Counted from the stretch's first letter, positions 867 to 56,447 are shown. The stretch is 64,000 bases of DNA from an uncultured delta proteobacterium (GCA_963808625.1 CAWEHK010000043.1:83405-147404); one strand, 5' to 3'. Numbers and translations: made by a program. The notes: a model not told the origin generated them from the sequence alone.

Positions 867-1214
867 GTGGGACCCGAACATCATCTCCCAATTTTTGGAT
901 CCACCGACTGCGGTTGCTGTGAGACCGGCGATCTGACCAGGGAAGAGAGCGGTCAAATCTATGGGTGCCACGAAAAGAGCACCGTTCTCACGCACCGGGA
1001 AGAAGAGGTCCTCAAGCGCATCAGGGAACTCGGTCTCGAAGCCAAAGCGCTCAGGGCCGAGCTGAAGCGCCTCGAGGAAGCAGAACCCGTTGATTTGCAG
1101 GCCAAACAAAGGGTCATGGAAGAACTGGAGAGCTTGCGCCGGATGCGTTCCGCCCTGGATTCGGAGCGGATCGCCGCCGCCGATGAGCGGATGCGCCTGT
1201 TAGGGCATGCTTAG
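867..1214 (+). CDS. Hypothetical protein (Cys-containing N-terminus, coiled-coil C-terminus)
   Basis: 115-aa ORF with GGAGG upstream, followed by a terminator-like hairpin. Confidence 0.6.
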   Translation: MGPEHHLPIFGSTDCGCCETGDLTREESGQIYGCHEKSTVLTHREEEVLKRIRELGLEAKALRAELKRLEEAEPVDLQAKQRVMEELESLRRMRSALDSERIAAADERMRLLGHA

Positions 1215-1262
1215 GAAAAGGGATAATCCAGGGACGGGTAAATCATCCTTGTTGAACTCCAC

Positions 1263-1296
1263 AAAAACCCGGCGGGCTGAGTTCTCCGGGTTTTTT
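1263..1296 (+). terminator. Intrinsic terminator-like hairpin
   Basis: AAAAACCCGG...CCGGGTTTTTT. Confidence 0.55.
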
Positions 1297-1576
1297 CATT
1301 GCTCCCCGGCACGACACCCACCCGCCAGAAAATCACCAGGCGATATTGGTGGGCAAGATGAAGCCTTGCCCACCCTACCGTGCTACTGTATTTGAAGCCA
1401 AGGGTGGGCTTCCGCTGACGTGTGCCGTCCAGATCAAACCATGGAGGGTGGGCACGTCTTCTTGTGCCCACGGAAACCGCGCATGAACTTAAGCTGGCAT
1501 GTGCCGGCCAGGTCAAGCCTGACCGGGCAGATGACCATCTGCCGCACATGACGAGCAATTCCGGGAGGAACGTAAC

Positions 1577-3832
<2,256 letters not shown>

Positions 3833-4952: not shown

Positions 4953-5273
4953 TCACCCCTGGTAGATGCCGCTGACGACATCGGCGATCTCACATTCGAG
5001 ATCATGTTCTTTGAGCAGGCGAACGATCTCGTGCAACTGGCCGGGATGATTCATGGCCACTTCGAGGTCGCCGGCCGCGTCGAGCACCGGGAACCGGTTC
5101 TCCCCGAGCACCCGCACCGCTTCCTCGAGCTTGTCAACCAACAGGCCCAGCACCGAGTATTCGGCCATGTAAGAAATCGGCAACGGCCGGGCCAGCCGAC
5201 AACACGCCTCGGGTTGCCCCCGGTCCTTGCCTGATCTCGTCTTCTCTTTCGCCAGTATGGGTAGCTTCCACAT
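4953..5273 (-). CDS. Hypothetical protein (start uncertain)
   Basis: ORF with a protein-like C-terminal half (YSVLGLLVD...EIADVVSGIYQG). Confidence 0.45.
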   Translation of the reverse strand: MWKLPILAKEKTRSGKDRGQPEACCRLARPLPISYMAEYSVLGLLVDKLEEAVRVLGENRFPVLDAAGDLEVAMNHPGQLHEIVRLLKEHDLECEIADVVSGIYQG

Positions 5274-5347
5274 CTTGTGTTGTCCGCTGGTTAGATATGG
5301 TAATTGGTTTTGTATACATGGATTTTGTCAGCTGAGTCAAACGCGAA

Positions 5348-5814
5348 ACGCGGCGCAGGGTGTAATCAGAAGTGGGAGTAACCTTCGTCCCGAATGCCTG
5401 CTGCTGAGCCACATCGTCATTCCGGCATTCTTCTAGCCGGAATCCAGGACTGTTTAACCACTGCAGATGTACTCCTGGATTCCGGCTTAAAGCGTGCCGG
5501 AATGACGATTTGCGTATGTCCAAAGCTATTATTGTTGCGTTCAGATCTGTCACAACTCTCACTTCTAATTGCACCCACGCGGCGCAGGGTGTAATCAGAA
5601 GTGGGAGTAACCTTCGTCCCGAATGCCTGCTGCTGAGCCACTATCGTCATTCCGGCATTCTTTAGCCGGAATCCAGGGCTGCATAACCACTGCCCATCTA
5701 CTCCTGGATTCCGGCTTAAAGCGTGCCGGAATGACGATTTGCGTATGTCCAAAGCTATTATTGTTGCTTTCAGTAATGTCACAACTCTGACTTCCATTCA
5801 CACCCACGCGGCGC
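5348..5814. mobile_element. Two tandem MITE-like elements (229-bp period)
   Basis: Units bounded by GGGTGTAATCAGAAGTG ... ACTTC(N)CACCC, separated and flanked by three copies of ACGCGGCGC (5348, 5577, 5806); interior GTCATTCCGGC...GCCGGAATGAC palindromes. Confidence 0.75.
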
Positions 5815-6035
5815 CCGGATTCGCCGCTGGCACCTGGGGCCGAATCGTGGCTCAAAACGGGCCGCCGGTGTCCGGCGCGATATGCTGCATTTGTCCTTCT
5901 GAGAAGGACGAAAAGGATAAATTGCATCCCTGTGAGAAGGATAAATTGCGTCGCCTCATGCGGCAGAAAATCTCCGAAGCGGCAGACTGGCTTCAAGGGC
6001 GTACCCCAGGTCCCTGGTAATGATAACAGCACCGA

Positions 6036-6058
6036 CCAGAGGGGGACACCCCCTCTGG
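6036..6058 (-). promoter_or_regulatory. GC-rich hairpin downstream of VR1 (candidate DGR target-recognition stem-loop)
   Basis: CCAGAGGGGG-ACA-CCCCCTCTGG, perfect 10-bp stem, about 93 nt past the target-1 stop codon. Confidence 0.5.
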
Positions 6059-6150
6059 ACTCCCCCGCGTCTCCTCGGACATCCCGCGTGCTCATGGGGC
6101 CACTCCCGGAGCCGAACATCAGAGTTTCAGAGACCCAGAGTCCAGAGTTT

Positions 6151-9100
6151 TCAGAGTTCAGAGGTGGAGGGAGGGGACGCCACCACCCGAAACCCGATAT
6201 TCCTGAGCCTGAGGTCCGGGAGGTTCCCGCCGCGGGCCGCACAGCGCACAAAGTCCGCATTGATGCCGAACGCGCCGCCGCGCAACACACGGCGAACCTC
6301 CCTCGAAGCATCCAGGTTCTCCCTCCCGTCCCTTGCATCGTAAGGATACTTAAACTCCGGCGTCTCCCAGTCCTTACCCCACAAACTCCGGGTCCACTCC
6401 CACACGTTGCCGCTCATATCCTCCACCCCATAGGGGCTGGCACCTTTAGGAAAACATCCCACCGCACTGGTGGAACCGATTCCCGTATCATCATAGTTCG
6501 CCCGGTCACGATCAAGCTCTTGTCCCCAGGGGTAGGTGCGACCGTCCGTTCCCCGCGCCGCCTTCTCCCATTCCGCTTCGCTGGGGAGGCGAACTTCCCA
6601 GGCGTCACCCAGTCTCTTCGCCCTTCGGAGCTCCTCGGTCAACCACCTGGTAAAGGCCAGGGCCTCATACCAGGTGATGCCAACCACCGGGTGGTTAGAC
6701 AGGCTGAATGGTTCCCCATAATCTTCCGGGTGCATCCGTGACTGAATCATGCCATTTTTCCACACCCCTTCCCTCTTGGCCTCACGCCAGTATTCCTCGA
6801 TCCGGTACCCGTCCGCATCCACAAAAGCCTGGAATTGACCGTTGGTCACGGGATATCGGGAAATCTTGTAAGCATAGGGGATATCGAATTCATATCCCTT
6901 GTCGTCTCCCATGGTGAATGGACCGGCGGGCACCTCGCACCAGGCAATGTCGGGCAGCCCATCGGCACCAAGTCCCACGCCAAGGCGGAAGTCCCCAAAC
7001 CGTGCCAAGGTGTTCGCCACATCCGAGCGCTCGACCGCCACCAGCGCGCCTGTTCCCACGAGGCCCGCAAGCCATTCTTTCACCCTCTCCAATAAGGGAG
7101 CATGGCGTGCTACGGCCTGGACGTCTTTCAGGCCGATCTCCAGCAGCGCTTCCCCGGCAAGGTGCGCCAGGCGGCAGTCGATCTCGGCAATGGCACCGCC
7201 CGCAATGGCGTGCGGGCAAAGCGCCGCGGCCACCTCCACCGCCAGGTGGGTGACGCGTTTGAGGCGAGCCATCACCCCCACCGCCCAGAGCGTCACCTGG
7301 CGCCACTGGGTATAGTTCTCGCGGGCCAAAGCGGCGGTAGCGTCCGGAAAGTCGGGCTGCACCGCCAGGTAACAGCCGGCCAGATACTCCTGGTAGCTGC
7401 GATGCGGAAAGGTGTAGACGCCCTTGCCGCGATCGATCAGCAGGCCGGCGCGGTGCTGGATGTCGGTAACAAGAAGCTTGGCGCGGTCCCAACTGCCCTC
7501 CAGGTAGTCCTTGAACACCCTCAGCAGCGTGGCCTCGTCGATATCGGCAGGACCCTGGGCACCCTTCTGCGCCAGGTGAACCTCGAAGGCCACCTGCTCC
7601 AACGCCGCTTCCAGCTTTTCCGAGCTCACCATCCGGTTGATGCTCGCCTCCGGCCCCAATCGGGCTTCCTGCCAGCGGACAAGCAACAGGCTGACCATCT
7701 GCTCGTAAAGCTTGACGCGATCATCGGGCAGCCGGCCCCAGGAGAAGTGGAGGGAGGCCATCATGGCCAACTGGAGCGGATTTTCAGCCAGGGGCGCCAG
7801 GTCCGGTCGGCGCGACAGCCTCCCGTAGGCGCCGGGCCTCTTCCGCGGCTTCCGCCTCGCTCTTCCAGCCCAGGCGGCATACCTCCCCATACCAGCAATC
7901 GATGAACGCCGCGATCTGTTTTTGGTCGAAGGGCGCCAGCGTGTGCTCTTTGAAACGATCCAGTTGGCAGCACGCGTCCTGGTACGCGTACCCCCGACAG
8001 GTCACGAGGTAGCGGTTTTCGGGGTGGTTGAAGGTGGCGGTGAAATCGGCCACCGCGTCACGGACGATCTGCCGCTGCGCGGGGTCGGCCACTTCGTCCA
8101 GGCCGTCCAGAAGGACCAGGACGCCGCCCTTCAGCAACTGTTGACGGAGGCCGGGTGCAAAGTCCGCCAGCTCCTGGCTGGCCAGGGTTTCGACGATGAA
8201 ATCCCAGAGGCCGGTGGCGGAGCCTCTGCAACGCTCGCTCTTGGCAAACTGGCGGAGCACCACCTGCACCGGCAGCAGCGGGCCGTGGGTCCACGCCGGC
8301 TGCAAGCGGTCCAACCAGCCGTCGCCAGGAAGCCATCCGGGCTCGCCCGCCTCCTCCAGCCGGGCGCCGGCCAGGCACAAGGCCAGGTGGTTGGCAAAAG
8401 TGGATTTGCCGCTTCCAGGGTCGCCCAGAATCACCAGGTAAGGCTCACGGGCCGCGGCCTCGAGCGCGGGAAGCAGCCGGCTCTCGCGTTCTTCCCGGAT
8501 CATGGCCTCCGACGGGCGCGGTGAAATTTCGCCTTCGGCTTCCAGTTTTTCACCGGCCACTTGGGTGCGCGTGTTGAGCGCGACGTAGATTTTGAGCAGG
8601 TCCAGGGTCTGTTGGCGAACACGTTCCACGGCACGGGGGTCGATCACTGCCAGAGGCAAAGCGTTGGCCGTCGCCTGGAGGCGGCGCAGGTAATTCGCTT
8701 CCAAACGGGCCAATTCGATCTCTGAGACGGCGGGTTGGAGAGCCACCGGGGGACGGCCTTTCCTCGCCGGTTTGCCGCCGGGCAATGGGAGCGGGAAGCG
8801 GAACTCCCCCTTGTCCACGTTGCGGTACGTCAGCGTGTCTCGGGCCCAAAAACCACCCTGGTGGTCGCTGTAAGTCCGCAGGATGACGACGCCCTCACCA
8901 GCCTCCAGATCGAGCCTCACCCAGTTGTATCCGTTCGGATAGTCGGCGGCTCTCATAGCCGGCGCCGGCGGCGATGATCATGGCCCCGGCATCGGGTGTT
9001 TTCAGGCTGAGCAGCCCGGTGCGGTGCAAGTGTCCGTGCAGGATGAAGCGACAACTGCCCATCAGGAGCGCTTCGCACTCTTCCCGGTCAAACTCGCACA

Positions 9101-9759
9101 GCCAGTCGAAAGGATGATGCAGCAGAGTGATACTCAGATCGGCACCTTGGGCGCAGAGCGATCGCCTGCCTTACCTGGCGCTCGCCAATTACCAGGCGGC
9201 CTCGATCCTCGTCTCCTCCCCGGGCCAGCCAGGCCGAGCTCAGCGCCAGGACAGCAAGCCGCCGGCCGGCGACGTCGAACGATTGTACCACGAAGGGAGC
9301 TTCATCCGTGAACGACCGGTCCGGGCTGAAATAGTCGTTTACAAACCGTGCATACGCGTCAAGGCGCTGAAAGAGCACGCGTCGGTCCGTATCGGCCGCC
9401 AGCACTTCGGCAACCGCCTCCCGGCTGTCCAGCGCCGACGCAATAGCCGATGCGCCCCTGGTGATGGCGGCCCGGTCCACGTCGTGGTTGCCCGGTGCAA
9501 CGAACAGGCGGGTCCTGGGCACGGCGGTGACCTGCAACAACTCATCGAAGAACTGCCTCGCGAGCTCGTACTCCTCAGCTTTGCCGCTGAAAGCAATGTC
9601 CCCGGTGATCGCGATGAAGTCGGGGCGCAAGTGGTCTTCCGTAATCCGGGTCTCCACATCGTCCACCAGTTTGCGCAGCACGATGTCACGATCCCAGGTG
9701 TGCCCCTCGCCGGCACGGAAGTGGAGGTCGGAGAGGTGAAGCCAGGTTATTGTGGACAT
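6151..9759 (-). CDS. DGR target 1: metallophosphoesterase - NACHT NTPase - FGE-sulfatase (CLec) protein, split by apparent frameshifts near 9140, 8950 and 7850
   Basis: LHLSDLH, TGDIA, PGNHD, HHP and HGHLH phosphoesterase motifs; GDPGSGKST Walker A, LLDGLDEV Walker [40 protein letters not shown]...GFRVV. Confidence 0.88.
6175..6294 (-). repeat. DGR variable repeat VR1
   Basis: 120-nt ungapped match to TR with 16 mismatches, all at TR adenines; encodes [40 protein letters not shown]. Confidence 0.95.
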
Positions 9760-9832
9760 GCGAGAGCCTCCGTATCAGGTTAACGTCGATTTGTGCGCTC
9801 ACAGGAGGGCGGGTTTTCCAACCCGCCGAACT

Positions 9833-11083
9833 TTACATGCAAATTCCTATACGATCGAGTAAGACCTCTGCTACGAAAAGTTCTTTTATAGGTCTTCGGG
9901 TGTGCTGAGGCGACACGAACGACTGCGGATAAGCTCTCAAAGGTGACCTCACGCGAAGGCGCGAAGACGCAAAGCGAAGCAAGAAACCTTCTTTCGGCTC
10001 TTTTTGCTTCGCAACAGATTTACCGCTCGACTCACCGCTACCCCTCCTCCTGCTCAATGGTACACTCAGTACCGCCTTCCGCAATCCCACGGTATTCCCG
10101 TAGCGGGCATGATTGACCCAGCCCTTGACGCTTTCGGTAACACGCTCCAGGGGTAATTCTCCAGCCTTAAATGACGCGATGAGTCGCTTCAGCCTCCGCC
10201 GGTAGAACATCCCTTTCCTGCGCTTCAAACGACGCCGGTCAGGGTACACCAGAAAGCCCAGGAAGGGAAAACCTTCGTCTACCGGTCGCGGATGAGCACC
10301 TTGATGAATCGTTACACGCAAACGAGCCAGCCTGGCTTCTGCGCCCTGCTTCCAATCCCAGAGCGTCGGCTTGTCGTCGGCAAAAAGAAGGAAATCGTCC
10401 ACGTAACGCACGTAGGCCTTGCACCGCAGTTCTCGCTTCACAAAGTGGTCGAACGGGTTGAGATAGCAATTCGCCCAGAACTGGCTGGTGAGGTTCCCGA
10501 TGGGCAAGCCTCGTGGTCGGTTTATGGCCATGAGATCATCGCCGGCGAAATAGACCATGTCATAGTGTTCGCTCAGCACCCCGATGCCGCTTTCCAAAAT
10601 GAGGCCGATCAGCCAGAGCACGTCCCTATCAGTGAGCTTTCGAGCAAGAATGGTCCGGAGGATCGCATGATCGATACTCGGAAAGAACTGGCGGACATCA
10701 CCCTGGAGGACATACCGATATTGACGCGCCAGTTTCTGTGCCCGGTTGAGGGCCCGATGCGTGCCTTTGCCCACCCGGTTTGCGTAGGAGTCGGCGATAA
10801 AGGTGCGCTCAAAGACCGGTTCGATGAGGTTGCACAGGGCATGATGGACCACCCGGTCCCGGAACGGCGCCGCCGAAATCAGGCGGCGTTTGGGCTCATG
10901 GATCGTGAAACTGGTGTAGGGGCCGGGCCGGTAGACCTTCGAGCTCAGCTCCTCGCGCAGCTCCAGGAGATTGTCTTCGAGGCGATATTCAAAGGCTGCC
11001 ACATTGGGGTGCCCGCGCTTCCCGGTGGCTGCCCGCCGAAACGCAAGGAGCAGATTCTCAAATGAACAGAGCTCATCGAACAT
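9833..11083 (-). CDS. DGR reverse transcriptase
   Basis: EPKRRLISAAPFRDRVVHHAL, GKGTH, DVRQFFPSIDH, GLPIGNLTSQFWAN, YVRYVDDF, FLGF; lies directly after TR; the C-terminal tail runs through a REP-like insert. Confidence 0.93.
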   Translation of the reverse strand: MFDELCSFENLLLAFRRAATGKRGHPNVAAFEYRLEDNLLELREELSSKVYRPGPYTSFTIHEPKRRLISAAPFRDRVVHHALCNLIEPVFERTFIADSYANRVGKGTHRALNRAQKLARQYRYVLQGDVRQFFPSIDHAILRTILARKLTDRDVLWLIGLILESGIGVLSEHYDMVYFAGDDLMAINRPRGLPIGNLTSQFWANCYLNPFDHFVKRELRCKAYVRYVDDFLLFADDKPTLWDWKQGAEARLARLRVTIHQGAHPRPVDEGFPFLGFLVYPDRRRLKRRKGMFYRRRLKRLIASFKAGELPLERVTESVKGWVNHARYGNTVGLRKAVLSVPLSRRRGSGESSGKSVAKQKEPKEGFLLRFASSRLRVRSPLRAYPQSFVSPQHTRRPIKELFVAEVLLDRIGICM

Positions 11084-11279
11084 GGCAAGCCATCTCAAAA
11101 AAAGATGATCCTGCACCAGGGTCAGGGGACCAAGGGTGCAGGATCGTTGTTATTCGCCCGGCCCGGTCTGACCCGAGCGCGGCCGGGAACAGACTCCGCT
11201 ATTTTTCGCCTCGGCCCGAAAGGGAGGAAGCCCCGTCGGGCAATCCCGGCAGGAACGCCGTTCCCGCTGCGAAAATTGT

Positions 11280-11399
11280 GGACGCCACCACCCGAAACCC
11301 GATATTCCTGTTCCTGTTGTTCGGGTTGTTCCTGTTGCGGGCCGCACAGCGCACATTGTTCGCATTGTTGTTGAACGCGCCGCCGCGCAACACACGGCG
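11280..11399 (-). ncRNA. DGR template repeat (TR)
   Basis: Intergenic between avd and RT; reads [40 protein letters not shown]; 28 adenines (12 AAY, 3 AGG, 1 ATC codons), all other codons adenine-free. Confidence 0.95.
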
Positions 11400-11421
11400 T
11401 TTCCGAGTCTGTCCCCGCAAC

Positions 11422-11443
11422 ACCGGGGCCCGCAGGCCCCGGT
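11422..11443 (-). promoter_or_regulatory. Hairpin just 5' of TR
   Basis: ACCGGGGCC-CGCA-GGCCCCGGT, 9-bp perfect stem. Confidence 0.45.
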
Positions 11444-11632
11444 AATTGCCCTGTTTCTAAGTGCAGCGCCGCACAAACAACGTGTCACTAACCAGTTGAT
11501 GCACAGAACGTCGGGTTTCAAGCTTCCTCATCGAATCACGGCATTGTGAACCGCAATCATGGTGAGGAACGAAACCCAACCTACGAGACTGACAACTCGG
11601 ACACTTTATTGTGCAGCGGTGAACTAGTCCAA

Positions 11633-11742
11633 CAACGGTACATTGGTGAAACTCCAATCCGTGTGGCGAAAGGCTTTCCAGCCTGCCATGCCGAAGCGGC
11701 CAAAAGGCAGGCTGGAAAGCCTGCCCCACAGATTAAGGCCCC
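11633..11742. repeat. REP-like palindromic repeat, inverted copy at 51260-51369
   Basis: GGCTTTCCAGCCTGCC...GGCAGGCTGGAAAGCC core; near-identical reverse complement at 51260-51369. Confidence 0.8.
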
Positions 11743-11816
11743 GAAGCGGAAACGCTCGTTTCTGAGAGCGTACTAAGTTTGGTTCCAGGCAGATGACGTA
11801 GGCAAAATGACGCCGG

Positions 11817-12170
11817 TCACCTCGGTTGTCGGGTCACTTTCTGCCAGCCGCCCAGTAACCGGCCGATTTCATTTGCCATGACCGCAACGTGTTCGTATTG
11901 CCCCAGAGAGAGCCAGCCCCATCGTGCGGCCAGCCGCAGATACATGCGCATTTTTGCCAGGGCCTCATCGGCCAGGAGCAACTGCTCGATGCGGGCATTG
12001 GCCTTCCGCAGGTTGGCTTCTTCCAGTCGTTCGCGCAGGTCGAAAGCCGCATCCAGCAGGCGCCGGGTGAACGTATGCCGGTGGGCTTTCGGAAAATGAT
12101 TCGTCGCGGGAAGCAGCCAGGTCAGCAGGTCGAAGGTGCGGGTAAAAATGGGCATTTCCTGTTGGCTCAT
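11817..12170 (-). CDS. avd: DGR accessory variability determinant (bAvd-like four-helix bundle)
   Basis: 117 aa; PIFTRTFDLLTWL...FPKAHR...EIGRLLGGW; directly upstream of TR and RT. Confidence 0.9.
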   Translation of the reverse strand: MSQQEMPIFTRTFDLLTWLLPATNHFPKAHRHTFTRRLLDAAFDLRERLEEANLRKANARIEQLLLADEALAKMRMYLRLAARWGWLSLGQYEHVAVMANEIGRLLGGWQKVTRQPR

Positions 12171-12439
12171 CGGCTCCTTTGCTCACATTATGCACTGGAT
12201 GTCATTTCGAAGTGATCAACCATCCCTCGGCAATGCCACCGCAGGAATGCCTCCATAGGCACCACGCTACGGATTACCCGAGTTGAAGTTATGCCTGCGA
12301 CTGGTTGCCCGTCGGGTGATGAGTGCCCTGAAAGGGCTTCATCACATAGCCCAGGGTCAGCAACAGCGCCACCCTGGGAGGGGAAAGCCAATCCCCTTTC
12401 CTTTACCCTGAAAGGGTTAGATAAATGGTTACCGTCGGT

Positions 12440-13764
12440 CAGTGGTGTCCGGTTAGGTTTTTGCAATTAAGCTGTCTCCTCGCTGCTCTTTGAAATCCGA
12501 AGGAATCGGAGGTTTTTGTTGGGAATCGCGAAGCTCGTTCTGGATTCTTATGCGAGCTCTCTTACTCGCTTGATGCTGACCTTTTCCTGGTAGTGATTAT
12601 GACAATAGATGGCTAGCAGCAGATAGGTAATAAGTCCGGAGAGAATTTGCACCATCAACCCGTACTCTGTCCTTGCGATAAGGTGATAGACCTTCAGATG
12701 ACGTTTCCACCAGGCAAAAAACTTCTCGATTTGCCAACGCAGTTTATAGATAAAAGCGATCTGCTCGGCAAAGAGATCATGGCGATCGGTAGCCACCCAG
12801 TAGTCTACGTTATCGACACGGTATCCAACAAGGCGAACTTGCTTTTGTGTCTGGTTAATACCTGGAGTCCCGAGCAGAACGATAGCATCGTAGAAGACGA
12901 TGCTGTTGGTTGGGACCGAGTTCATTTGAATGCAAGTTTTCTTGGTATTTGCCTTGATACGGCAGACAAAGTGCTTGCCGTCGGTTTGCCATTGATCAAA
13001 GCTTTTGTGGCACTGATAGCCCCGGTCCATGACACCAGTCTGGCCAGGTGAGAGGATCATGGCAACAAAGGGGCGCTCACCCTCCTTACCGTCGGTGAGA
13101 AAGATTTTGGAGGGAATACCACGATTGATGTCAAAGCCAACATGGACTTTAGCTTTCTTTGAACCGTCCCGGTAGTCAGCCCAGTACATAGAGAGGACAG
13201 CCTGGATGAGCGAGCCGTCAATGCCCACCAGTTCACCAAGTTCGGTGTGCTGGGCGGGTAAAACATTAGAGGCTTGGTTCTGAAGTTGCTGGTACACGTG
13301 ACCAAGCTGTTCAAGACCGCGATTGTTAATGGCCTCGAAAAAACTGCTCTTCTGGATGCCATCGGGAGGCGCAATGTGATTGCGGGCGAAGTCATCCTCT
13401 TCAAGAGCCTGGATTAGATGCCGCCCAGAGGTGTGTTCCTCGAGATGAAAGTAAACCAATGCTTTGAGTTGTTGTTCGAAGTTCATCTGCAAGGGTCGGT
13501 TCCCTCTTGCCACCAGGGGATTAGCGGTAGCAAGGGTGATTTCAGTTGGTTTGAAGAGCTCATCAAAACTCGGCGTAGCGTACTTACGGTCGTAAGGGTG
13601 GAATGTCTTCGGCATTTTCGTAACTCCTTAGAAATATAGGATTTTCCGAAAATGGCCGCGACCCACACCTTAATTGAAATGTCAAGTAAAAAAGTGACTC
13701 AACCTGTTGTTTTTTGACATTTTTTACACCTTATCATATGCAATTTCTTAACCGGACATCACTG
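12440..13764 (-). mobile_element. IS4-family insertion sequence, 1325 bp
   Basis: Terminal inverted repeats CAGTGGTGTCCGGTTA / TAACCGGACATCACTG; 9-bp target duplication ACCGTCGGT at 12431-12439 and 13765-13773. Confidence 0.92.
12548..13615 (-). CDS. IS4-family DDE transposase (probable frameshift near the 3' end; true stop likely about 12453)
   Basis: GIDGS, MDRGY and YKLRWQIEKFF (YREK-like) motifs. Confidence 0.9.
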   Translation of the reverse strand: MPKTFHPYDRKYATPSFDELFKPTEITLATANPLVARGNRPLQMNFEQQLKALVYFHLEEHTSGRHLIQALEEDDFARNHIAPPDGIQKSSFFEAINNRGLEQLGHVYQQLQNQASNVLPAQHTELGELVGIDGSLIQAVLSMYWADYRDGSKKAKVHVGFDINRGIPSKIFLTDGKEGERPFVAMILSPGQTGVMDRGYQCHKSFDQWQTDGKHFVCRIKANTKKTCIQMNSVPTNSIVFYDAIVLLGTPGINQTQKQVRLVGYRVDNVDYWVATDRHDLFAEQIAFIYKLRWQIEKFFAWWKRHLKVYHLIARTEYGLMVQILSGLITYLLLAIYCHNHYQEKVSIKRVRELA

Positions 13765-13993
13765 ACCGTCGGTATGATTTATGTAACCCCTTCAGGGTAG
13801 ATATCCTTATTGCGCCCGGTTCCCAGGGTGGCGCTATCGCTGACCCTGGGCTCATTTATGGAGCCCCTTCAGGGCAAAAAAGACAGCTTGATGCCTATGC
13901 GGACACCCCCTTTGGACTCCCCCGCCCATTCTCGCACAAGTTCCATCACTCGTGTTCAAGATTACATTTTCCAGGATCCAGAGTCCAGAGTTT

Positions 13994-16900
13994 TCAGAGT
14001 TCAGAGGTAGAGGGAGGGGACGCCACCACCCGAAACCCGATAAGCCTGAACCAGTCGTTCGGGGAGTTCCTGAAGCGAGCCGCACAGCGCACATAGTTCG
14101 CACTGAGGTCGAACGCGCCGCCGCGCAACACACGGCAAACCTCCTCCGACGCATCCAGATTCTCCCTCCCGTCCCCTACAACATAAGGATATTTAAACTC
14201 AGACTTCTCCCAGTCCTTACCCCACAGGCTCCTGGTCCACTCCCACACATTCCCAGCCATATCAAGGCAACCATAGGGGCTGGCTCCACCAGGGAAAATG
14301 CCTACCGGAGTAGTATCCTCCAATTCAAGTTCCCGAAGAGTTGCACCGCACCGCATCGAACTGGTCTCCCCAAGGGTAATTGGGGGCGTCCCCATCGCCT
14401 CGCGCTGCCTTTTCCCACTCCGCTTCACTTGGCAGAATGACGTGTTGTCGTGTCATCTCGCTCAGCCAGCGACAATACGACATGGAGTCATGCCAAGTAA
14501 CTCCGGTCACAGGATGGCTCTCCCGACCTCTGGGAGGATGTGCTTCCTCCCAACCCCCCGGTGCAGTATGACCCGTTGCCTGGACGAACAAATAGTACTG
14601 AGCATTCGTTATCGGCACCCGTGAAATGCGAAAAGCCTCCAGGTGGACTTGGTGTCTTGGTCTTTCATGGGTGGAGTGCTCATCACTGCCCATCCAGAAC
14701 TTCCCCGCCGGAACAAGGACCCACTCAGGCTGCCCATACGGCGGAGACCAGAGACGATTCCCACCGATTCGAGCCAGAGCTCTTACCGCCGCACTCCGGC
14801 GCTCGGCCAGGGCTTTCGCGCTCATCCCCCGTGATAGAAGAGTGAGAACCGATTTGAACCGTCCTCGAGGCGGAGGAGTGTCCAATTCCTTTCTCAGCTG
14901 TTTCTGAACTTCACTCTCCAGGTTTCCCTGAACCCTATTGCTTCCTACATCCAAGAGGCATTCGGCGGCGAGCACCAGATTATGATACAGCTCCTCTTCC
15001 TGTTGCAAGTCAGCGATGGCCTGTATCAATCGGGTGACCCGCTCTTTCCCATGGGTGCTGAGATACCCGGCTTCGAGCAGAATCACCTCTCGCCACCAGG
15101 GATCCGGCACACGATCAAGTGTGTAAGCGACATAATCGTCACGGCACGCTACAGCCAGCGCTGTCAGGTACTCCTGAAAGGTGAGATGAGAGAAGCCGTA
15201 GGCCCCCTCTCCGCGAGCCACCAGCAGCCCGGTGCGCTCCTCAATGATCTTCAAAAATCCGTCAACAGCCTTGTTGACCTTCTTCTGATCGCCCAAATCA
15301 TCGAGAAACAATTCAGCCAGAATGGTCTTCAGGTCCTCCAGGGAAATCTCTTTGAGTTGCCTCTCATGCATGGTGAGCGCAAGGGTTTGCAGCATGACGC
15401 GTTTGTCGCCTATATCAAAGGTCTTTCCTTCCAGCACAGGGACCTCTCGTATCCCTCTGGCCTCATCCCATTTCCCTAAAAGGACATCGACCGCCTCAGC
15501 ATAGAGCTCTGCGCGGCGGTCGGGGAGTTGCACGCGATCTCGATGGACCATGGCGATGACCGTCAACATGAGGGGATTGATGGCCAGTTCACGAATTCGT
15601 GAGTTATCCTGGATGGCTTTCATCAGCTGTCGGGTTTGCTTAGCAGCATACGACTCCGCAGTCAGGCCAGGCCCCATTAGCCCAATGGCCACCATGCGAT
15701 GCCAGTTGGTCAGGAACTGCTCGACATCGCCCACGGTGAAATCACGGACCGTCGTCGTGGTAAAGGCTTCCCCCAGGCAGGCTGGGCCGGTATAGCCAAC
15801 AATGCGGCAAGTCACCACGTAGCGGCATTTATCGTAAGCTCTGACAAAGCTTTCCACCAGTCGCGACACCCGTTGCCGCAAATCAGGATCGGCGACTTCG
15901 TCCAGGCCGTCCAACAAGACAACAGCCTTGCCATCGTTCAACCATTCGTCAAAGAAATCCAAGGGCAATACGATGCGTTCTTCTTTTAGCGAGCCAAACA
16001 GGAAATTCAGCAGCCGCGCATGGCCCTCTGTCCCGTCATCGACGGAATGATGGGAGCGCAGAAATGACCCGATCTTTCTCAGCGGCAGGAGGATCGGCAA
16101 TCTTCCGCTCTCATCCAGGCCAAGCTCTTCCCGGGCCAGGGAGGTACTCTCGGCAAGGTCTTTTGCATAGAGCAGGGCGACATAGCGCAAGAGGGTAGTC
16201 TTGCCGCTCCCCGGATCACCCAATACAACCAGGCGTGGGTTCGCAGCCAGAGCTTCCTCAACTTTGACCGTGACCGTTTCCGTCACGGGCGCTCCTTGCT
16301 GGTGCAGGCGATGCCTTTCGCCAGGGGCCAACATCAATTCCTCTGCAAGCCATCTCTCCTTTTCCTCGGCGGCTTGACGACGCGTGGCCCGCAGCCTTAC
16401 ATAGATGCGATCGAGCTCAATATGGACCAGCTTCCCGCCAGAACGTATCCCCTGCAACTGGAGGTACCGGTTGAGACTGATCACATGGGTCAGATAACGC
16501 CCCATGGCGGAGGCGCGTTCCACGGCAGACATGGCGATAGGCACTTCACCCGCGTAGACCGTTGCCCCATCTTTCGCAATGATTACATGCCCCGACACAT
16601 TGCCGCCCACCGCCGCACCGCCTTGGCCTGCCGCGATTCCTCTTTTGGTTGCTGCGGCACCGGACCCGGTGACAATGAGGTTATCGCCCCCCTCGTGTTC
16701 AGCGGCTTTGAGCAATTCGGCGAGTTCGCCCGCAAAAGCGGCATCCGACGCGATCAGTTTGCGCAACTCTTTGCGGAACGAGGCTTCATTGTCCTGGTCT
16801 TCGGGGTTGGCAACGAGGTTCTTTACCGCCTCTTCCGCTGGCGCCTTGCCCCTGAACCTAGCCGTGATCGCATGCCACACTTTGCCAACCTGCTCGGGCA

Positions 16901-17006
16901 GTTTCCTGCCCACTTCCTCGGCCGCTTTCTCGCCTGCCTTGGTGAGGTAGGGGATGAGCAAGGCCGTGGCCGACGATGCAATTGATGCAATGGTAACCGG
17001 GTCCAT
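13994..17006 (-). CDS. DGR target 2: helical N-terminal domain + Gly-rich motif - NACHT NTPase - FGE-sulfatase (CLec), apparent frameshift near 14333
   Basis: ATG at 17006 with [72 protein letters not shown]...GFRVV. Confidence 0.88.
14018..14137 (-). repeat. DGR variable repeat VR2
   Basis: 120-nt ungapped match to TR; 15 mismatches at TR adenines plus 2 C-to-T changes (one synonymous, one at the boundary); encodes [40 protein letters not shown]. Confidence 0.93.
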
Positions 17007-17560
17007 GGTTTTCTCCTTTGGCTCCCGACAATGTGATCGTGCCATTGAGTTAGAGGACCCATCAATCCTCGTCTTTGACATTTACCACTTGGATGCTGCC
17101 GTGCACATCCCCTTTGACCGCAATGCCACCCTTCCCGGCCGCGACTCCTCCTTTGGTCGCTGCGGCGCCGGACCCGGTCACAATGAGGGTATCGCTCGCC
17201 TCGTCCTGAGCGGCTTTGAGCAATTCGGCAAGTTCGCCGGCAAAAGCAGTATCCGACGCGATCAGTTTGCGCAACTCTTTGCGGAATGAGGCCTCGTTGT
17301 CCCGGTCTTCGGGGTTGGCGACGAGGTCTCTTACCGCCTCTTCGGCCGGGGCTTTGCCCCTGAACCTGGCGGTGATGGCATGCCACATTTTACCAGCCTT
17401 CTCGGGCAGTTTCCTGCCCACTTCCTCGGCCGCTTTCTCGCCTGCCTTGGTGAGATAGGGTACGAGCAGGGCCGTGGCCGATGATGCAATTGTCGCAATG
17501 GTAACCGGGTCCATGGTTTCCTCCTTTGGCTCCCGCCAGGGTAATTGTGCCATTGAGTTA
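16590..17560. repeat. Tandem duplication, 508-bp period, including RBS and upstream sequence
   Basis: About 16590-17052 repeats at about 17098-17560; the first 102 aa of the two products differ at 9 positions. Confidence 0.9.
17062..17514 (-). CDS. 150-aa helical (Bell-like) protein with C-terminal Gly-rich, amyloid-like motif
   Basis: MDPVTIATIASSATALLVPYL...WHAITARF...FAGELAELL followed by GSGAAATKGGVAAGKGGIAVKGDVHGSIQV; AAGGAGG RBS. The ORF is solid; the family call is by resemblance. Confidence 0.7.
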   Translation of the reverse strand: MDPVTIATIASSATALLVPYLTKAGEKAAEEVGRKLPEKAGKMWHAITARFRGKAPAEEAVRDLVANPEDRDNEASFRKELRKLIASDTAFAGELAELLKAAQDEASDTLIVTGSGAAATKGGVAAGKGGIAVKGDVHGSIQVVNVKDED

Positions 17561-17642
17561 AGAAGAAAGTTGGCTATACTTTAGCTTCCTTCACGGAAGG
17601 CGATGGAGAACTATTATGACCTATTAAGCGAGAAATGTGCCC

Positions 17643-18422
17643 ATGAAGATTCGCCTGTTTCAGATCGATGCGTTTACCGACACGCTGTTCAAGGGCAATC
17701 CGGCGGCGGTGTGCCCGTTGGATAGCTGGCTCGATGATGCTACCCTCCAGGCCATTGCCGCCGAGAACAATCTCTCGGAAACGGCCTACTTCGTTAAGCG
17801 GTCGGATCACTACAAACTGCGGTGGTTCACTCCGAAAGCCGAAGTGGACCTCTGCGGCCATGCGACGCTGGCCTCAGCTCACGTCATCCTCACCTTCCTT
17901 GACCCGGAGAGCGACGCCGTCCAATTCCAGACGAAGAGCGGCGAGCTTTCGGTCGAGCGACGGGGAGAGCTCCTGGCGATGACGTTTCCGGCCCGCCCGG
18001 GCGCCCCCTGCAAAGCTCCGGAAAGCCTTGTCGAGGCCCTGGGAATGGCACCGAGCGAGTGTTTTCTGGCGCGGGACTACCTGGCGGTCTTCGCGTCGGA
18101 AGCAAGCGTCAAAGCCATCGCCCCCCGAATGGACAAACTGGCCGCCCTGGACTGCCTGGGAGTCATCGTCTCTGCTCCCGGCACGCAATCGGATTTTGTG
18201 TCGCGCTTTTTCGCTCCGAAAGTCGGCATACCCGAAGACCCGGTGACGGGATCGGCTCATTGCACCCTGATTCCCTACTGGGCGGCCAGACTCGGCAAGA
18301 AGAAACTCCACGCGCTGCAGTTGTCCGCACGCGGCGGTGAACTCTTTTGCGAACATCTGGATGACAAGGTCGGCATCGCGGGCCGAGCGGTTACCTATCT
18401 CGAAGGAACCATCGATGTTTAG
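17643..18422 (+). CDS. PhzF-family isomerase/epimerase
   Basis: QIDAFT...GNPAAV, NLSETAY, LRWFTP..EVDLCGHATLA, EDPVTGSAH. Confidence 0.92.
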   Translation: MKIRLFQIDAFTDTLFKGNPAAVCPLDSWLDDATLQAIAAENNLSETAYFVKRSDHYKLRWFTPKAEVDLCGHATLASAHVILTFLDPESDAVQFQTKSGELSVERRGELLAMTFPARPGAPCKAPESLVEALGMAPSECFLARDYLAVFASEASVKAIAPRMDKLAALDCLGVIVSAPGTQSDFVSRFFAPKVGIPEDPVTGSAHCTLIPYWAARLGKKKLHALQLSARGGELFCEHLDDKVGIAGRAVTYLEGTIDV

Positions 18423-18522
18423 CGGTGCCTCATGGGCCGGTTGCGCCGTCTTTTGCTGCCGGCCCCTGGGACCTGGCAGGGCGTTGAAAACCTTCTGCCA
18501 ACGTCACCCCGGTGGAAGCTTA

Positions 18523-18739
18523 TAGGCGTCAACTTACGAGGACCTGTAATTACTTTCAGATGCTTACGGCTTTAGCTGCTGGCCGCCGATCGTCACCCCC
18601 GCATGTTCCCAGCGGGGGTCCAGGGGTTTGAAGGACCTTGCTGGATTCCCGCTGAAAGCAATGCGGGAATGACGTTCGGGAGCTTTTCGGGCCCTGTAAG
18701 CATTCAGTAGTACCTGGAAAACCCTTAAGTTGACGCCTA
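18523..18739. mobile_element. MITE-like element with REP cargo
   Basis: 14-bp perfect terminal inverted repeat TAGGCGTCAACTTA / TAAGTTGACGCCTA enclosing CGTCACCCCCGC...GCGGGAATGACG palindromes. Confidence 0.6.
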
Positions 18740-18912
18740 AGTGCGGAAGCCGGGGTCAAGAAAGCCTTGCAGAGCCTAGATTCCGGTTTTCACCGGAATG
18801 ACGAACAGGGCCTCTGAAACGCTTTTTTAACAGTCTGCCAGTCGCCATGGTTAGTGGTTGATGGTTGGCGACTCGGAGTCAAAAGCTCTTGCGGCGCTTT
18901 TTCACAAATCTG

Positions 18913-19643: not shown

Positions 19644-21156
19644 ATGATCTTCAGTTCCGTAATCTTCCTTTTCTTCTTTCTGCCCTGTGTTTGGGCCGTC
19701 TATTACCTGTCCTGGAAGAAAGCGCACGACTTTGCCCTGCTTCTGGCAAGCCTGGTCTTCTATGCATGGGGCGGAAGAGAGCAGGTTTTGGTACTGCTTT
19801 TCTCCATTCTTGTAAACTACCTTGTAGGTTTATCTTTTCTCATCGTCGACCGCGTAGCCGTGGAGAGAAGAACCAGGCTCAATCCTGGCAGCGCCACCCC
19901 GTCGCAGGCCAGTGTTTCCAGTCCGAGAAAACTGCTTTTCATCCTTGGAATTACGTCTAACCTGGCGCTGCTCACCGGGTACAAGTACCTCAACTTCCTG
20001 GTCGCCAACCTCAACCTGTCACTTGGATGGCTCGACTTCGGACCGATTGCCCTTGATCAGGTCGTTGCTCCGCTGGGGATTTCCTTCTTTACCTTTCATG
20101 CTCTGTCATATCTGGTCGAAACCTACCAATTCAAAGCGGCGCCTCAAAGGAACCCACTCAAATTCGCGCTCTACCTCGCAGTCTTCCCGAAGGTCCTGGC
20201 CGGACCCATTCTAAGATACCACGATGCAGAAAACCAGCTTACAGAAAGACGCATCACCTCCCGGGCGTTCTCGATCGGAATCGAGCGTTTTATCATCGGC
20301 CTCGGGAAAGAAGGTGCTCATCGCCAATCCCCTGGCTGCCGTGGTCGACAAGATCTTTGCGATACCCGCGGGCGAGCTGGGCTTTGATGTTGCCTGGCTC
20401 GGCCTGGTCTGCTTCACGCTCCAGATCTACTTCGATTTTTCCGGATATACCGACATGGCCATCGGGCTCGGCAAGACTTTTGGTTTCGAGTTCCCCGAAA
20501 ATTTCAACTACCCTTACCTTTCCCAGTCCGTCCAGGAATTCTGGAGGAGATGGCACATCTCGCTTTCCGTCTGGTTCCGGGATTACCTTTACATTCCTCT
20601 TGGCGGAAACCGGTGTTCTCCGGCAAAGCACTATCGCAACCTCATCGTCGTCTTTCTGCTCTGCGGCCTCTGGCATGGCGCGAGCTGGAATTTCATCATC
20701 TGGGGGCTGTGGTACGGCTTGTTCCTGGTCCTCGAAAGGCTCGAAATCGGCAGCCGGCTTCGAGCCGCCTGGCGCCCCGTGCGGCATCTGTATGCGCTGG
20801 GGGTGATCATGATCGGCTGGGTACTGTTCCGAACCGACGATCTTTCCCATGCGCTATACTATCTTCGAGCCCTGTCAGGATTGAACGGGGCCGGCAGCGG
20901 ACAATACTATCCGGACCAGTACCTTGACAACGAAGTAGGCCTTATTTTGATCGTTGGAGGAATGGCGGCGCTGCCCCTGGCGACGTTCCTGAAGAAACTG
21001 AGCGGCGGCTTTGGGGGAAGCCCCTGGGCACGGCACCGGGCAGTAACGTATGGAATTTCAGCAGTCCACATTGCCTTTTTGGGCCTTTTGTTTGTATTAT
21101 CCTGTTCGGCGGTAGCCGTGGGCACATACAATCCGTTTATCTACTTCAAGTTCTAG
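19644..21156 (+). CDS. MBOAT-family O-acyltransferase (AlgI/DltB-like), frameshift near 20310
   Basis: MIFSSVIFLFFFLP, PLGISFFTF, LAGPILRY, QIYFDFSGYTDMAIG, FWRRWHISLS, GLWHGA, NPFIYFKF. Confidence 0.92.
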
Positions 21157-22865: not shown

Positions 22866-23095
22866 TTACAGGATTCCCATATCTCTTCCCCAAGCGGGGA
22901 AACAATATCCTTCTCAAAAACATATGCCTCAGCAAGCTTACCTGGTACAGGATTTGGTTCTTTATTACGATATGGAATAATTTGAGCAAGCGGCTTTCCG
23001 CGTTTGGTTATGACAATCCCTTCCCGTGTCTTTGCAATCTGGTCCAATATTCTTAATGCATGTGCTTTGAATTGACTTATTCCCATTGTTTTCAT
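22862..23095 (-). CDS. Phd/YefM-family antitoxin
   Basis: MKTMGISQFKAH...IVITKRGKPLA; overlaps the vapC start. Confidence 0.88.
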   Translation of the reverse strand: MKTMGISQFKAHALRILDQIAKTREGIVITKRGKPLAQIIPYRNKEPNPVPGKLAEAYVFEKDIVSPLGEEIWESCK

Positions 23096-23328
23096 AAAAA
23101 CCCTCCTCACGCAAATAAATATAGTCAAATGAAATGACCATGTCAATGACGCCTGCGCCCACCGCGGACCACCCGGTTGGTACCTGGAGAGCAGGAGACT
23201 ACCGACCCGAAGCGCCACATCATGGGCTTTCCCAGTCTGCCACCTTAGTCATGGCAGGAGGGAAGGCCTGCCCCACATCGATGCGGGAACTCAAGAGTAA
23301 GCAACTTGTTCGTGCCCGGACCGGCACG

Positions 23329-35622: not shown

Positions 35623-36028
35623 AATCTGATCTCCCCTCTTCTCAAAATGAGCGTTCACCACTCATGCGAATTGACATCCAGGCAGGTTTTCGTAAGGGTT
35701 TTCATGCCCAAAAGTTTAACAAGCTATTGGTTGAGCAAATTACTATACTCAATTTCGCCGTTCTGTACACTAGAAAAACGATTCCGGCACCCACGGACAC
35801 GCTCCAGCACTCAAGATTACCATCGGCCCTACCCCATTCACCCGTGCCCTCGATGCTCTTGAATTATACTCATTTCGGATGAAATCTTCCGCTTCGGCAA
35901 GCCCGGCAATCAACCGCAGAGTCCGCTGAGATCACAGAGAAAGCCAATGATTATCTCTGCGCCCTCTGTGCTCTCTGCGGTGGAAAAGCAAACTGTTGAA
36001 CCTTTGCCCATTGCCGGTGGGCGGCTCC

Positions 36029-40192: not shown

Positions 40193-41077
40193 CTACACTT
40201 CCAGCCACGAGTCGGAATAGAGCGTATTGCCCAGAATGACCTTGGCGGTTTTCACATAGTCAACTTCTTCTTTTGATAACGATGCCATATCGATGGGCTC
40301 GCCATCTTCCACTTTATAAACCAGGGCTTCGAGGTCAGGCCGCTTCCCCCGGGCAATCTCATGGAGCGGGGTGTCGAAGGTGTCGACGATGGCGGAATAG
40401 AGTCCATGACGTTTCCAAATCATGAGCATCACCTGGTTGAGAATGGGCCGCAAGTGCTCCGGGGGTCCATTGGACACATTCGAAAGCCCGATCGTGCTCC
40501 GGGCTCCCGGCGCAATATCCTGGAACATTTTCATGAATTCGAGAACACTCATGATTTGCCCTTGCTGCACATTTACCGGGGTCTGGATGGGATCGATGAG
40601 CATCCGCTCAGGATCGATCCCGAATTCACCGGTCGCCTTGAACACCAGTTCGGCACAGAGCGCCCCGCGCTCATTCTCATCCCGGGGCATACCCTCCGGC
40701 CCCCAAAGCAGCCCGACAAAATCGGCATCGTATTCAGCGGCAAGGGGCAGCAGCGCGTCCATTCTCTCCGGACGCACCATGATTGAATTGATCAACGGCC
40801 GCCCTTTTTTGTGCACCTTGAGGCCGGCTTCGATGGCCTTGATATTGGAGGTATCAAGGGCCAGCGGGAGGTCCACGACCTCGTGCACCACCGGCACCAG
40901 CCAGGTCATCAAGTCGACACCGGTCTTCCCCGCCGGGCCGATATTGAGGTCGATCCAGTCCATGCCGGCTTCGGCTTCCTGAACCGCGAGTTCCTGCAAG
41001 GTTTTTGCATCCTTTTCCTTAAGAGCCTTGCCATATTTTTTGCTCATAATGTTTAGATTTTCACCAATGAGCTTCAT
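40193..41077 (-). CDS. acsE: Methyltetrahydrofolate:corrinoid/FeS protein methyltransferase
   Basis: Pterin-binding fold (IGENLN, IDLNIG, LALDT, INSI, IDP, GLSNVSNG); last gene of the acs cluster. Confidence 0.88.
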   Translation of the reverse strand: MKLIGENLNIMSKKYGKALKEKDAKTLQELAVQEAEAGMDWIDLNIGPAGKTGVDLMTWLVPVVHEVVDLPLALDTSNIKAIEAGLKVHKKGRPLINSIMVRPERMDALLPLAAEYDADFVGLLWGPEGMPRDENERGALCAELVFKATGEFGIDPERMLIDPIQTPVNVQQGQIMSVLEFMKMFQDIAPGARSTIGLSNVSNGPPEHLRPILNQVMLMIWKRHGLYSAIVDTFDTPLHEIARGKRPDLEALVYKVEDGEPIDMASLSKEEVDYVKTAKVILGNTLYSDSWLEV

Positions 41078-41293
41078 GCTTGCGTCCTCCCTCCATTTTG
41101 CCATTACTCACAGGCTGCTGAAGAATCTCCTTTTCGATGCTCGATAGCTGCTCCTGCCCGCACAGGCAGAAAGGCCCCGTAGGTTGGGGTTCGTTCCTCT
41201 CCATCATGATGGTGGTTCATACCACAGCGATTGATCGAGGAACGAAACCCAACGCACGCATCGAATTCGGACACTCATTTACACGGCACTGTA

Positions 41294-42643: not shown

Positions 42644-42655
42644 AGGATTTTCTCC

Positions 42656-44869: not shown

Positions 44870-44997
44870 GGTTTACTCCTCTTCTTAAGGGCTGTTTACC
44901 CTGACTTGCACTGCTGTAACATCGGCTTCAAACCGACATTTTCCGCTTCCCCGGGGGACCTTTGCCGGGGACCTGCCCCGATCCCCCCGCATCCTGT

Positions 44998-46992: not shown

Positions 46993-47078
46993 GTTGCACC
47001 TCATCCCCCCTTCGTGGGGTCTTTGTTGAAATCCGCACAATCCTGGAAGTTATGGCATCGGACCCAGCCCAGGTCCCC

Positions 47079-56206: not shown

Positions 56207-56209
56207 AAG

Positions 56210-56428: not shown

Positions 56429-56447
56429 TTTCAAGGAGACCAATGTC

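Follow-up and report, generated by a model that had tools for sequence, protein, structure and literature searches.

What kind of element surrounds a reverse transcriptase gene with three copies of one short sequence, two of them at the ends of large receptor-like genes, and is such an element still intact? This question is raised by a locus in an uncultured delta proteobacterium (GCA_963808625.1 CAWEHK010000043.1:83405-147404). The whole stretch of 64,000 nucleotides (nt) that was analysed is called the window here, and coordinates are window positions unless a contig is named. An earlier, sequence-only reading had described the locus as a complete diversity-generating retroelement (DGR) acting on two different proteins that resemble nucleotide-binding leucine-rich repeat (NLR) receptors. 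Our analysis shows that the locus is indeed a complete DGR, with an accessory variability determinant (Avd), a template repeat (TR) and a DGR-type reverse transcriptase (RT), and with one target gene upstream and one downstream, each carrying a variable repeat (VR). That avd, TR and RT are co-oriented between the two targets was correctly described: every part of the cassette lies on the minus strand. In reading order, a small gene is followed by target 2 with VR2, an IS4-family insertion sequence within a split repeat, avd, TR, RT and target 1 with VR1:

17062..17514, minus strand: small stand-alone gene, 150 amino acids (aa), paralog of the target 2 N-terminus; mechanical open reading frame (ORF) start at 17553
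13994..17081, minus strand: target 2, with a helical N-terminal module, NACHT, and an FGE-sulfatase/C-type lectin (CLec) domain with VR2; likely start Met at 17006
14018..14137, minus strand: VR2, with 15 of 17 differences from TR at TR adenines
13768..13894, no strand assigned: half of a dispersed repeat of ~300 bp split by the IS4 element, with many genome copies
12439..13765, minus strand: IS4-family insertion sequence in the interval between target 2 and avd; transposase at 12548-13615 (NF033592 IS4 transposase, 197 bits)
12249..12430, no strand assigned: second half of the dispersed repeat split by the IS4 element
11817..12170, minus strand: avd, 117 aa (NF033474 DivGenRetAVD and Pfam bAvd)
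11624..11760, no strand assigned: palindromic dispersed repeat resembling a miniature inverted-repeat transposable element (MITE), in the avd-TR spacer (blastn)
11280..11399, minus strand: TR, 120 nt, 28 adenines
11117..11279, minus strand: 163-nt spacer between TR and RT, placed as the BPP-1 spacer region and putatively of like function
9833..11116, minus strand: DGR reverse transcriptase, 427-aa ORF (RVT_1); relatives align to about residue 351
6151..9759, minus strand: target 1, with a metallophosphoesterase, NACHT, and an FGE-sulfatase/CLec domain with VR1, ~1200 aa, in four frame pieces
6175..6294, minus strand: VR1, with 16 of 16 differences from TR at TR adenines
6133..6174, minus strand: ~42 nt directly after VR1, a candidate target-side homing element, with a near-identical copy after VR2 (13976-14017)

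The identification rests first on the mutation footprint. TR, VR1 and VR2 are three copies in register, and the 28 adenines among the 120 nt of TR are confined to 12 AAY, three AGG and one ATC codons, the remaining codons being free of adenine. This agrees with the 12 AAY and four other codons counted in the sequence-only reading, whose tally of differences was also borne out by alignment: all 16 differences between VR1 and TR fall at TR adenines, as do 15 of the 17 between VR2 and TR over the 120-nt block. With 28 adenines in 120 nt, the hypergeometric chance of such a pattern is 1e-12 for 16/16 and 8e-10 for at least 15 of 17. Between VR1 and VR2 there are 19 differing sites, 17 of which are TR adenines; because the two disagree at these sites as well, each target has been rewritten independently. 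Changes affect both VRs at ten of the 28 adenine sites, one VR at 11 and neither at seven. The mismatches are almost purely at adenines, which suggests that the last homing was recent. Beyond VR1 and VR2, TR has no match in the whole 4.8-Mb assembly.

The theoretical repertoire had been put at 4^28 (about 7e16) nucleotide variants per target, which is correct (7.2e16). At the protein level it amounts to 15^12 x 3^3 x 4 = 1.4e16 variants per target, and by the genetic code no stop codon can arise; the stop codon of each target lies 21 nt past its VR. The GC-rich sequence GGGTGGTGGCGTCC marks the end of the homology between TR and the VRs. In the alignments, the ~42 nt that follow this homology are common to VR1 and VR2 and missing after TR.

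The proteins of the cassette lead to the same identification. Profile hidden Markov model searches, proposed earlier as a check for NACHT, FGE-sulfatase and bAvd, recovered all three. Avd passes the curated DGR-Avd model of NCBI (NF033474, 87.4 bits, cut-off 80) and matches Pfam bAvd (PF22296) with 64.5 bits (cut-off 40). The best match of the RT among solved structures is the 328-aa RT of PDB entries 8ub7-8ube (160.8 bits), and group II intron RTs score at most 85.2 bits in the same comparison. Its identity to the annotated BPP-1 brt product is 33.3% over residues 12-345 (E 1e-39). It contains the motifs YVDD and IGNLTSQ; the latter, which we take to be a hallmark of DGR RTs, aligns with IGSLTSQ of the 8ub7 RT. 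In a maximum-likelihood tree of 34 RTs, the locus RT belongs to a clade of 32 together with the RTs of BPP-1 and Vibrio phage VP585, split (99/96) from the group II intron RT of its own genome (contig C36) and from a fourth RT (contig C54). This tree was built without nine of the 37 related loci, two of which have a stop in the matched stretch (L008, L026) and seven of which have partial or split matches (L019, L031, L033, L034, L035, L038, L039). Grouping with group II intron or retron RTs had been named as an outcome that would overturn the identification; since the RT groups with BPP-1 Brt and away from the group II intron RT of the same genome, that objection falls. The fourth RT, at C54:91178-91663 in a 404-aa open frame with YVDD, is placed outside the DGR clade, where a very long branch joins it beside the group II intron RT of the same genome.

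The locus resembles the DGR of BPP-1 (NC_005357, mtd-avd-TR-brt) in its gene order, in its Avd homolog and homologous RT, in the position of the VR at the 3′ end of a gene for a CLec-fold target, and in its adenine-specific differences. The spacer that separates TR from RT measures 163 nt here, versus 144 nt between TR and brt in the BPP-1 record. Unlike BPP-1, the locus is cellular, its targets are two NLR-like ATPases of cytoplasmic type instead of a tail-fibre protein, and the second target lies downstream; moreover, no hairpin was detected after the VR, and the avd-TR spacer is 417 nt long and includes a dispersed repeat. If the BPP-1 paradigm holds, the avd-TR-RT unit would be transcribed, RT and Avd would copy the TR RNA into cDNA while misreading adenines, and this cDNA would take the place of the homologous VR, 120 nt long, with which both target genes end. 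On the model of Kaur et al. (2021) and Doré et al. (2024), an invader molecule could then be bound by the variable lectin tip, the NACHT part could oligomerise and the N-terminal module could act.

Both targets carry NACHT and FGE-sulfatase domains according to Pfam and NCBIfam, as had been proposed. The NACHT matches (PF05729) reach 48.1 and 36.0 bits, with a cut-off of 26.7, that of target 2 covering residues 284-462; Walker A (GDPGSGKS/T) and Walker B (LLDGLDEV) are found in both. The FGE-sulfatase match runs to profile position 254 of 255 in both proteins, the VR being located at the extreme end of the lectin-fold domain, and in target 2 Pfam detects the domain in both frame pieces. The Treponema denticola variable protein TvpA (2y3c) is among the solved relatives of the targets. 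The earlier suggestion that one template serves two receptors with different output ends also stands: the N-terminus of target 1 is a metallophosphoesterase (PF00149) and that of target 2 a helical module without a named family.

In the target 1 head, the blocks DLH, GD, GNHD, HHP and GHLH are all present; we take them to be the metal-binding motif list of calcineurin-like metallophosphoesterases. The head is likely to be a nucleotide- or nucleic-acid-cleaving effector. When its first 223 residues were compared with longer proteins, 743 matches were obtained at E<=1e-10, and the best 120 of these include many proteins of ~1180-1250 aa that combine PF00149, PF05729 and PF03781.

The head of target 2 has a free copy in the adjacent gene, whose 150-aa product is 81-86% identical to the target 2 N-terminus. 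This small protein has 138 matches in a family whose members are ~147 aa long and lack a Pfam domain. Its AlphaFold 2 model, made from 44 aligned sequences, predicts six helices over residues 3-108 with good confidence, followed by a Gly-rich tail that is disordered in the model and highly conserved. Up to E<=10, Pfam gave the target 2 head only Cadherin_5 and EAD1, both below cut-off (EAD1, PF19955: E 0.082, 13.8 bits, cut-off 24.2). A Foldseek search of the PDB with the fold of the 150-aa protein returned nothing at E<=0.001. In a wide VIA-align search its best Z was 6.0, which is uninformative for a helical bundle, and CARD and a bacterial death-like domain reached Z 4.4, within noise. We rejected an Atlas lead connecting the 150-aa protein to HetE-N, which covered only 14% of the members of one cluster. 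A predicted complex of the target 2 head and the 150-aa protein scored 0.02, below the mark of 0.32, and gives no verdict.

A copy of the N-terminal module in a neighbouring gene corresponds to the principle of effector-associated domains (EADs) as set out in Kaur et al. (2021; PMC8195603). The helical module of target 2, which has six helices and a Gly-rich tail like its free copy, is likely to be an adaptor or executioner recruited upon activation. The arrangement also recalls two amyloid signalling pairs of bacterial NLRs, Bell/BASS (Dyrka et al., bioRxiv 10.1101/2020.01.06.895854) and Bab-Agp (Ibarlosa et al., bioRxiv 10.1101/2024.11.07.622273), described in these preprints as a small helical protein with a short, conserved C-terminal motif beside an NLR-like protein with the motif at its N-terminus. 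It is a resemblance only: unlike in those systems, the NLR-like protein here carries the whole helical domain plus the motif, and neither the target 2 module nor the 150-aa protein has a sequence or fold match to the Bell or Bab domain. One could go further and imagine that the head and its free copies form an unrecognised death-fold or Bell-like adaptor or executioner, the ligand-bound NLR recruiting or templating the copies through the shared tail and thereby killing or arresting the cell. We hold this to be rather improbable.

Taken as a whole, we consider it likely that the locus is a cellular DGR targeting STAND (signal transduction ATPases with numerous domains) NTPases, that the targets are NLR-like, that their frameshifts are most likely assembly indels, and that the system is probably intact and was probably acquired horizontally. 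Several points weigh on the other side. Two of the VR2 differences lie outside TR adenines, one being a synonymous change (GCC>GCT) and the other affecting the first base of the block. Downstream of VR1 and VR2, no hairpin stands out against shuffled sequences (z -0.97 and +1.39). As deposited, the sequence does contain the frameshifts, and their status as artefacts is our inference; the IS4 element between target 2 and avd and the MITE-like repeat between avd and TR could impair expression of the cassette. The presence of a decayed second DGR on contig C38 indicates that decay does occur in this genome. Immune function of targets of the STAND-FGE type is, according to the text of Doré et al. 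(2024; PMC10907252), without experimental demonstration to date. Finally, no read-level sign of ongoing diversification was seen in nine sequencing runs, which share only 0.05-0.08 of words.

The metagenome scans revealed no alternative alleles of VR1 or VR2. A VR-specific 28-mer had 0 matches, and a 25-mer of the shared framework recovered 11 loci, all from other DGRs; one of these (L061) is a TR relative that is identical at 115 of 120 positions and retains all 28 adenines. The contigs assembled from the runs (X1-X4, 88% likeness) are short and of low depth, mostly 88-95% alike, and consist mainly of insertion sequences and dispersed repeats. As they provide no strain-level cover of VR1 or VR2, nothing follows from them on activity or on the frameshifts.

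One alternative accepts the DGR and assigns its targets another role: within syntrophic aggregates, the NACHT-lectin proteins would distinguish self from non-self, recognise partners or signal, and would not act in phage defence. The missing experimental link between STAND-FGE targets and phage defence speaks for it. Likewise, PADLOC gives the NACHT parts of the two targets only weak P-loop matches. None of the curated defence-system models was matched over its cut-off, EruA of NCBIfam reaching 37.6 and 22 bits where 1000 are required. Fungal NLRs of similar logic are also described in the literature as acting in allorecognition. However, the target 1 head matches the heads of candidate anti-phage proteins, namely NCBIfam DS8 and DS9 (E 8e-22 and 7e-20), at 76.8 and 71.3 bits, below the full-length cut-offs of 790 and 420, the match being confined to the phosphoesterase head; it also matches PADLOC PDC-S60 (1.8e-24). 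In addition, the NACHT clade includes proven anti-phage proteins, as stated in Doré et al. (2024; PMC10907252), and the genome has many paralogs, as is typical of conflict genes. We regard a role outside defence as unlikely; the adaptive-immunity-like role of the diversified targets is itself a published hypothesis.

A second alternative is that the locus is a recently inactivated relic: the targets would be genuine pseudogenes, erosion of the cassette by the IS4 element and MITE-like repeats would be under way, and the VRs would be frozen. The target frameshifts already noted in the sequence-only reading are present, dividing target 1 into four pieces and target 2 into two. In target 1 the frame runs 0, 2, 1, 0, with three changes near 9149-9151, 8942-8950 and 7804-7815, and in target 2 it runs 2, 1, with a single change near 14332-14334. 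Insertions within the cassette (12439-13765 and 11624-11760) fit such erosion, as does the second DGR of the same genome, in which TR adenines account for only 13 of the 22 differences in one VR and 10 of the 19 in the other, and the RT is split; degradation of DGR loci by transposons and MITEs is reported in Doré et al. (2024; PMC10907252).

Against a relic, all four frame changes occur in short G/C runs and consist of one extra base each, as is typical of consensus errors, and nothing is missing when the pieces are compared with full-length homologs. The target 1 pieces are colinear with 1206- and 1212-aa homologs (residues 1-199, 201-270, 271-630 and 640-1209), and those of target 2 cover residues 12-925 and 899-1011 of the 1043-aa homolog in the related locus L005, at 56-58% identity. 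The single-copy, essential rpoB gene (contig C22:93402-97521) is broken likewise: it is recovered as five matches in two frames with internal stops, and has at least four frame changes relative to the 1370-aa Syntrophobacter fumaroxidans protein, or ~1 per kb, which equals the rate in the targets. Several metabolic genes of the window are split too. Since rpoB is affected in the same way and the target pieces remain colinear with full-length homologs, the four frameshifts are most likely assembly errors. Moreover, the RT and Avd frames are open and full length, the mismatches lie almost purely at adenines, and neither the IS4 element nor the repeats interrupt a DGR gene or a TR or VR. A relic thus appears quite unlikely and, the frameshifts being read as assembly indels, we have good confidence that the system is intact. 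The other cut genes in the window encode an MBOAT protein, pyruvate phosphate dikinase, dihydrolipoamide dehydrogenase and an AAA_14-DUF4143 protein (19644-21156, 33400-35661, 56206-57881, 62931-63963). The assembly is rich in frame changes throughout, so pseudogene calls in this genome need polished reads first.

That the locus might be no DGR at all, with an RT of group II intron or retron origin and with ordinary paralogous gene ends as its repeats, has practically no chance of being right: the best NCBIfam model for the RT is indeed a group II intron RT/maturase, yet at 128.9 bits, far under its 300-bit cut-off, whereas the RT groups with annotated DGR RTs, a curated Avd match adjoins it, and one repeat copy is non-coding and has adenines exactly where the two coding copies vary.

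The mobile DNA of the cassette is shared with the rest of the genome. The IS4 element has three further genome copies (94-99.8% identical) and sits inside the ~300-bp dispersed repeat, whose halves are contiguous at C37:143652-143940; contigs of run X2 show the joint as well, from 12430 to 13768. With the avd-TR spacer as query, blastn gave 91 matches (self included) in both orientations on many contigs, the repeat being ~137 bp long and palindromic. A search of Rfam over 5000-18000 found nothing above gathering threshold; a sub-threshold match to Acido-Lenti-1 RNA was obtained for the part of the ~300-bp element at 12324-12378 (27.6 bits, gathering 37). Copies of this element also lie just downstream of other NACHT-FGE paralogs (C43:57504-57627, C43:62002-62127 and C37:143652-143940). 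A third family of dispersed repeats is represented downstream of target 1, where 229-bp units are arranged in tandem at 5348-5814.

Where does the cassette come from? A piece of rpoB is 90-96% identical to Syntrophobacteraceae proteins, 59-64% to those of Gammaproteobacteria and 40-44% to those of Chloroflexota metagenome-assembled genomes (MAGs), which identifies the host, as judged from this marker, as a member of the Syntrophobacteraceae. A Chloroflexota host, as suggested by the RT relatives, was rejected on the low identity of the same piece. The nearest relatives of the RT are indeed found in Chloroflexota/Anaerolineae MAGs (best 78%, in an Anaerolineae MAG), and others in Verrucomicrobiota and Contendobacter MAGs. 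Among 40 related genomes (seven of the same genus, 17 of the family, 15 of the order and one of the class), none has an RT above 39% identity and none has the cassette. Given the absence of the cassette from these 40 relatives and the affinity of its RT to those of Chloroflexota MAGs, the simplest reading is that the Syntrophobacteraceae host probably obtained it by horizontal transfer. The GC content is 0.63 at 6-10 kb versus ~0.55 in the rest of the window.

The association of such RTs with NACHT-lectin genes recurs elsewhere. A homolog of the NACHT part adjoins the RT in 14 of the 37 related RT loci, with at least two homologs in four of those; 12 have the FGE part only, and the other 11, mostly short contigs, have neither. 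Avd is found in 32 of the 37 and the target 2 head module in four, and the phosphoesterase head in none of them. The closest locus for target 2, L005, is a 21-kb contig of a Candidatus Contendobacter MAG, whose 1043-aa homolog is 56% identical and has the same head module. A free copy of the head module follows the RT there, and the NACHT-FGE genes of the contig number three; a search with the locus Avd as query gave no match to it.

Within the host genome we found 24 FGE-sulfatase matches and about ten further NACHT-FGE paralogs. The latter are located at C43:57912-60087 and C43:62410-64589, 20-25 kb before the window, and on contigs C12, C33, C37 (two), C44, C50, C16 and C21. None of them has a VR matching the TR of the locus; they could be either frozen or orphan receptors or the targets of unassembled templates. 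The second DGR lies between two NACHT-FGE genes at C38:14500-23300, with its RT (17671-18511) split in two frames, its template TR2 at 18667-18798 and its variable repeats VRa and VRb at 16603-16734 and 23017-23148. Its low share of differences at TR2 adenines and an indel in VRa make it look decayed. A remote TR2-like end occurs at C37:68448-68576, with 17 of 24 differences at adenines.

Some other genes of the window may be mentioned here. The Wood-Ljungdahl genes reported earlier are present as a cluster for carbon monoxide dehydrogenase/acetyl-CoA synthase (CODH/ACS) at 40193-48023 on the minus strand, which encodes a pterin-binding protein, CdhD-type subunits, ACS/CODH beta and a Prismane/CODH protein, all in open frames. 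An FGE-sulfatase gene at 60467-61087 (minus strand), in three frame pieces, has no link to the locus TR. An 872-aa ORF at 1211-3829 (minus strand) was rejected as a part of the system, being without a family and of low Atlas recognition; its composition resembles that of an antisense shadow of a fragmented plus-strand gene.

The architecture of the locus has already been published, together with its calcineurin-type heads, its paired targets and the presence of transposons and MITE-like repeats (Kaur et al., 2021; Doré et al., 2024). The STAND NTPase-FGS proteins of Kaur et al. (2021, PMC8195603; compare Kaur et al., 2020, PMC7159879) begin with an EAD or an effector, for which calcineurin is listed, and continue with an NTPase of the NACHT clade; their genes often lie with those for an RT and a four-helix accessory protein, and an organism often has at least two copies whose heads differ. 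Our locus shares with them the order of N-terminal module, NACHT and FGS, the linkage to an RT, the differing heads and the copy of a head domain in a neighbouring gene. In contrast to the proteins described there, the target 2 head matches no named EAD confidently, and its free copy is without a recognisable effector.

Doré et al. (2024; PMC10907252) list Metallo PF00149 among DGR target domains, propose an adaptive-immunity-like role as a hypothesis, and infer horizontal acquisition of DGR loci. The closest parallels in their text are the clade 5 (5D) DGRs, such as DGR 3 and DGR 6 of Thiohalocapsa PB-PSB1, in which one TR serves two targets, each having a central NACHT/STAND NTPase and carrying its VR in a single C-terminal CLec/FGE domain. 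Paired targets with different N-termini, a Metallo domain, transposons together with MITE-like repeats, and several DGRs per genome are further features in common. This likeness is one of locus architecture, not of RT clade placement, and natural diversification was shown by reads in their case. The multicellular or aggregate lifestyle of hosts with clade 5D targets is presented there as an enrichment, not a strict rule. The locus differs from theirs in its Syntrophobacteraceae host: the main text of Doré et al. names no Syntropho- or Desulfo- taxon, although the supplementary host list may. A literature search combining DGR and Syntrophobacter led to a paper that, in the part available, places its DGRs in Gammaproteobacteria.

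The locus does not alter what Kaur et al. (2021) and Doré et al. (2024) have described, and its additions are modest. It extends the known host range to a member of the Syntrophobacteraceae, adds a case of likely cross-phylum transfer of a whole cassette, and brings to light an unnamed head module with a free paralog. If the proposed relay between this head and its free copies were true, it would join the diversification of receptors by a retroelement to a relay from an NLR to a small executioner, in a syntrophic, non-filamentous bacterium with a horizontally acquired cassette. DGR-diversified NLR-like proteins are, in their putative role, the closest bacterial counterpart of a somatically diversified antigen receptor. 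With one template, two heads and clean adenine footprints, this locus provides a compact and apparently complete example that would be well suited to reconstitution.

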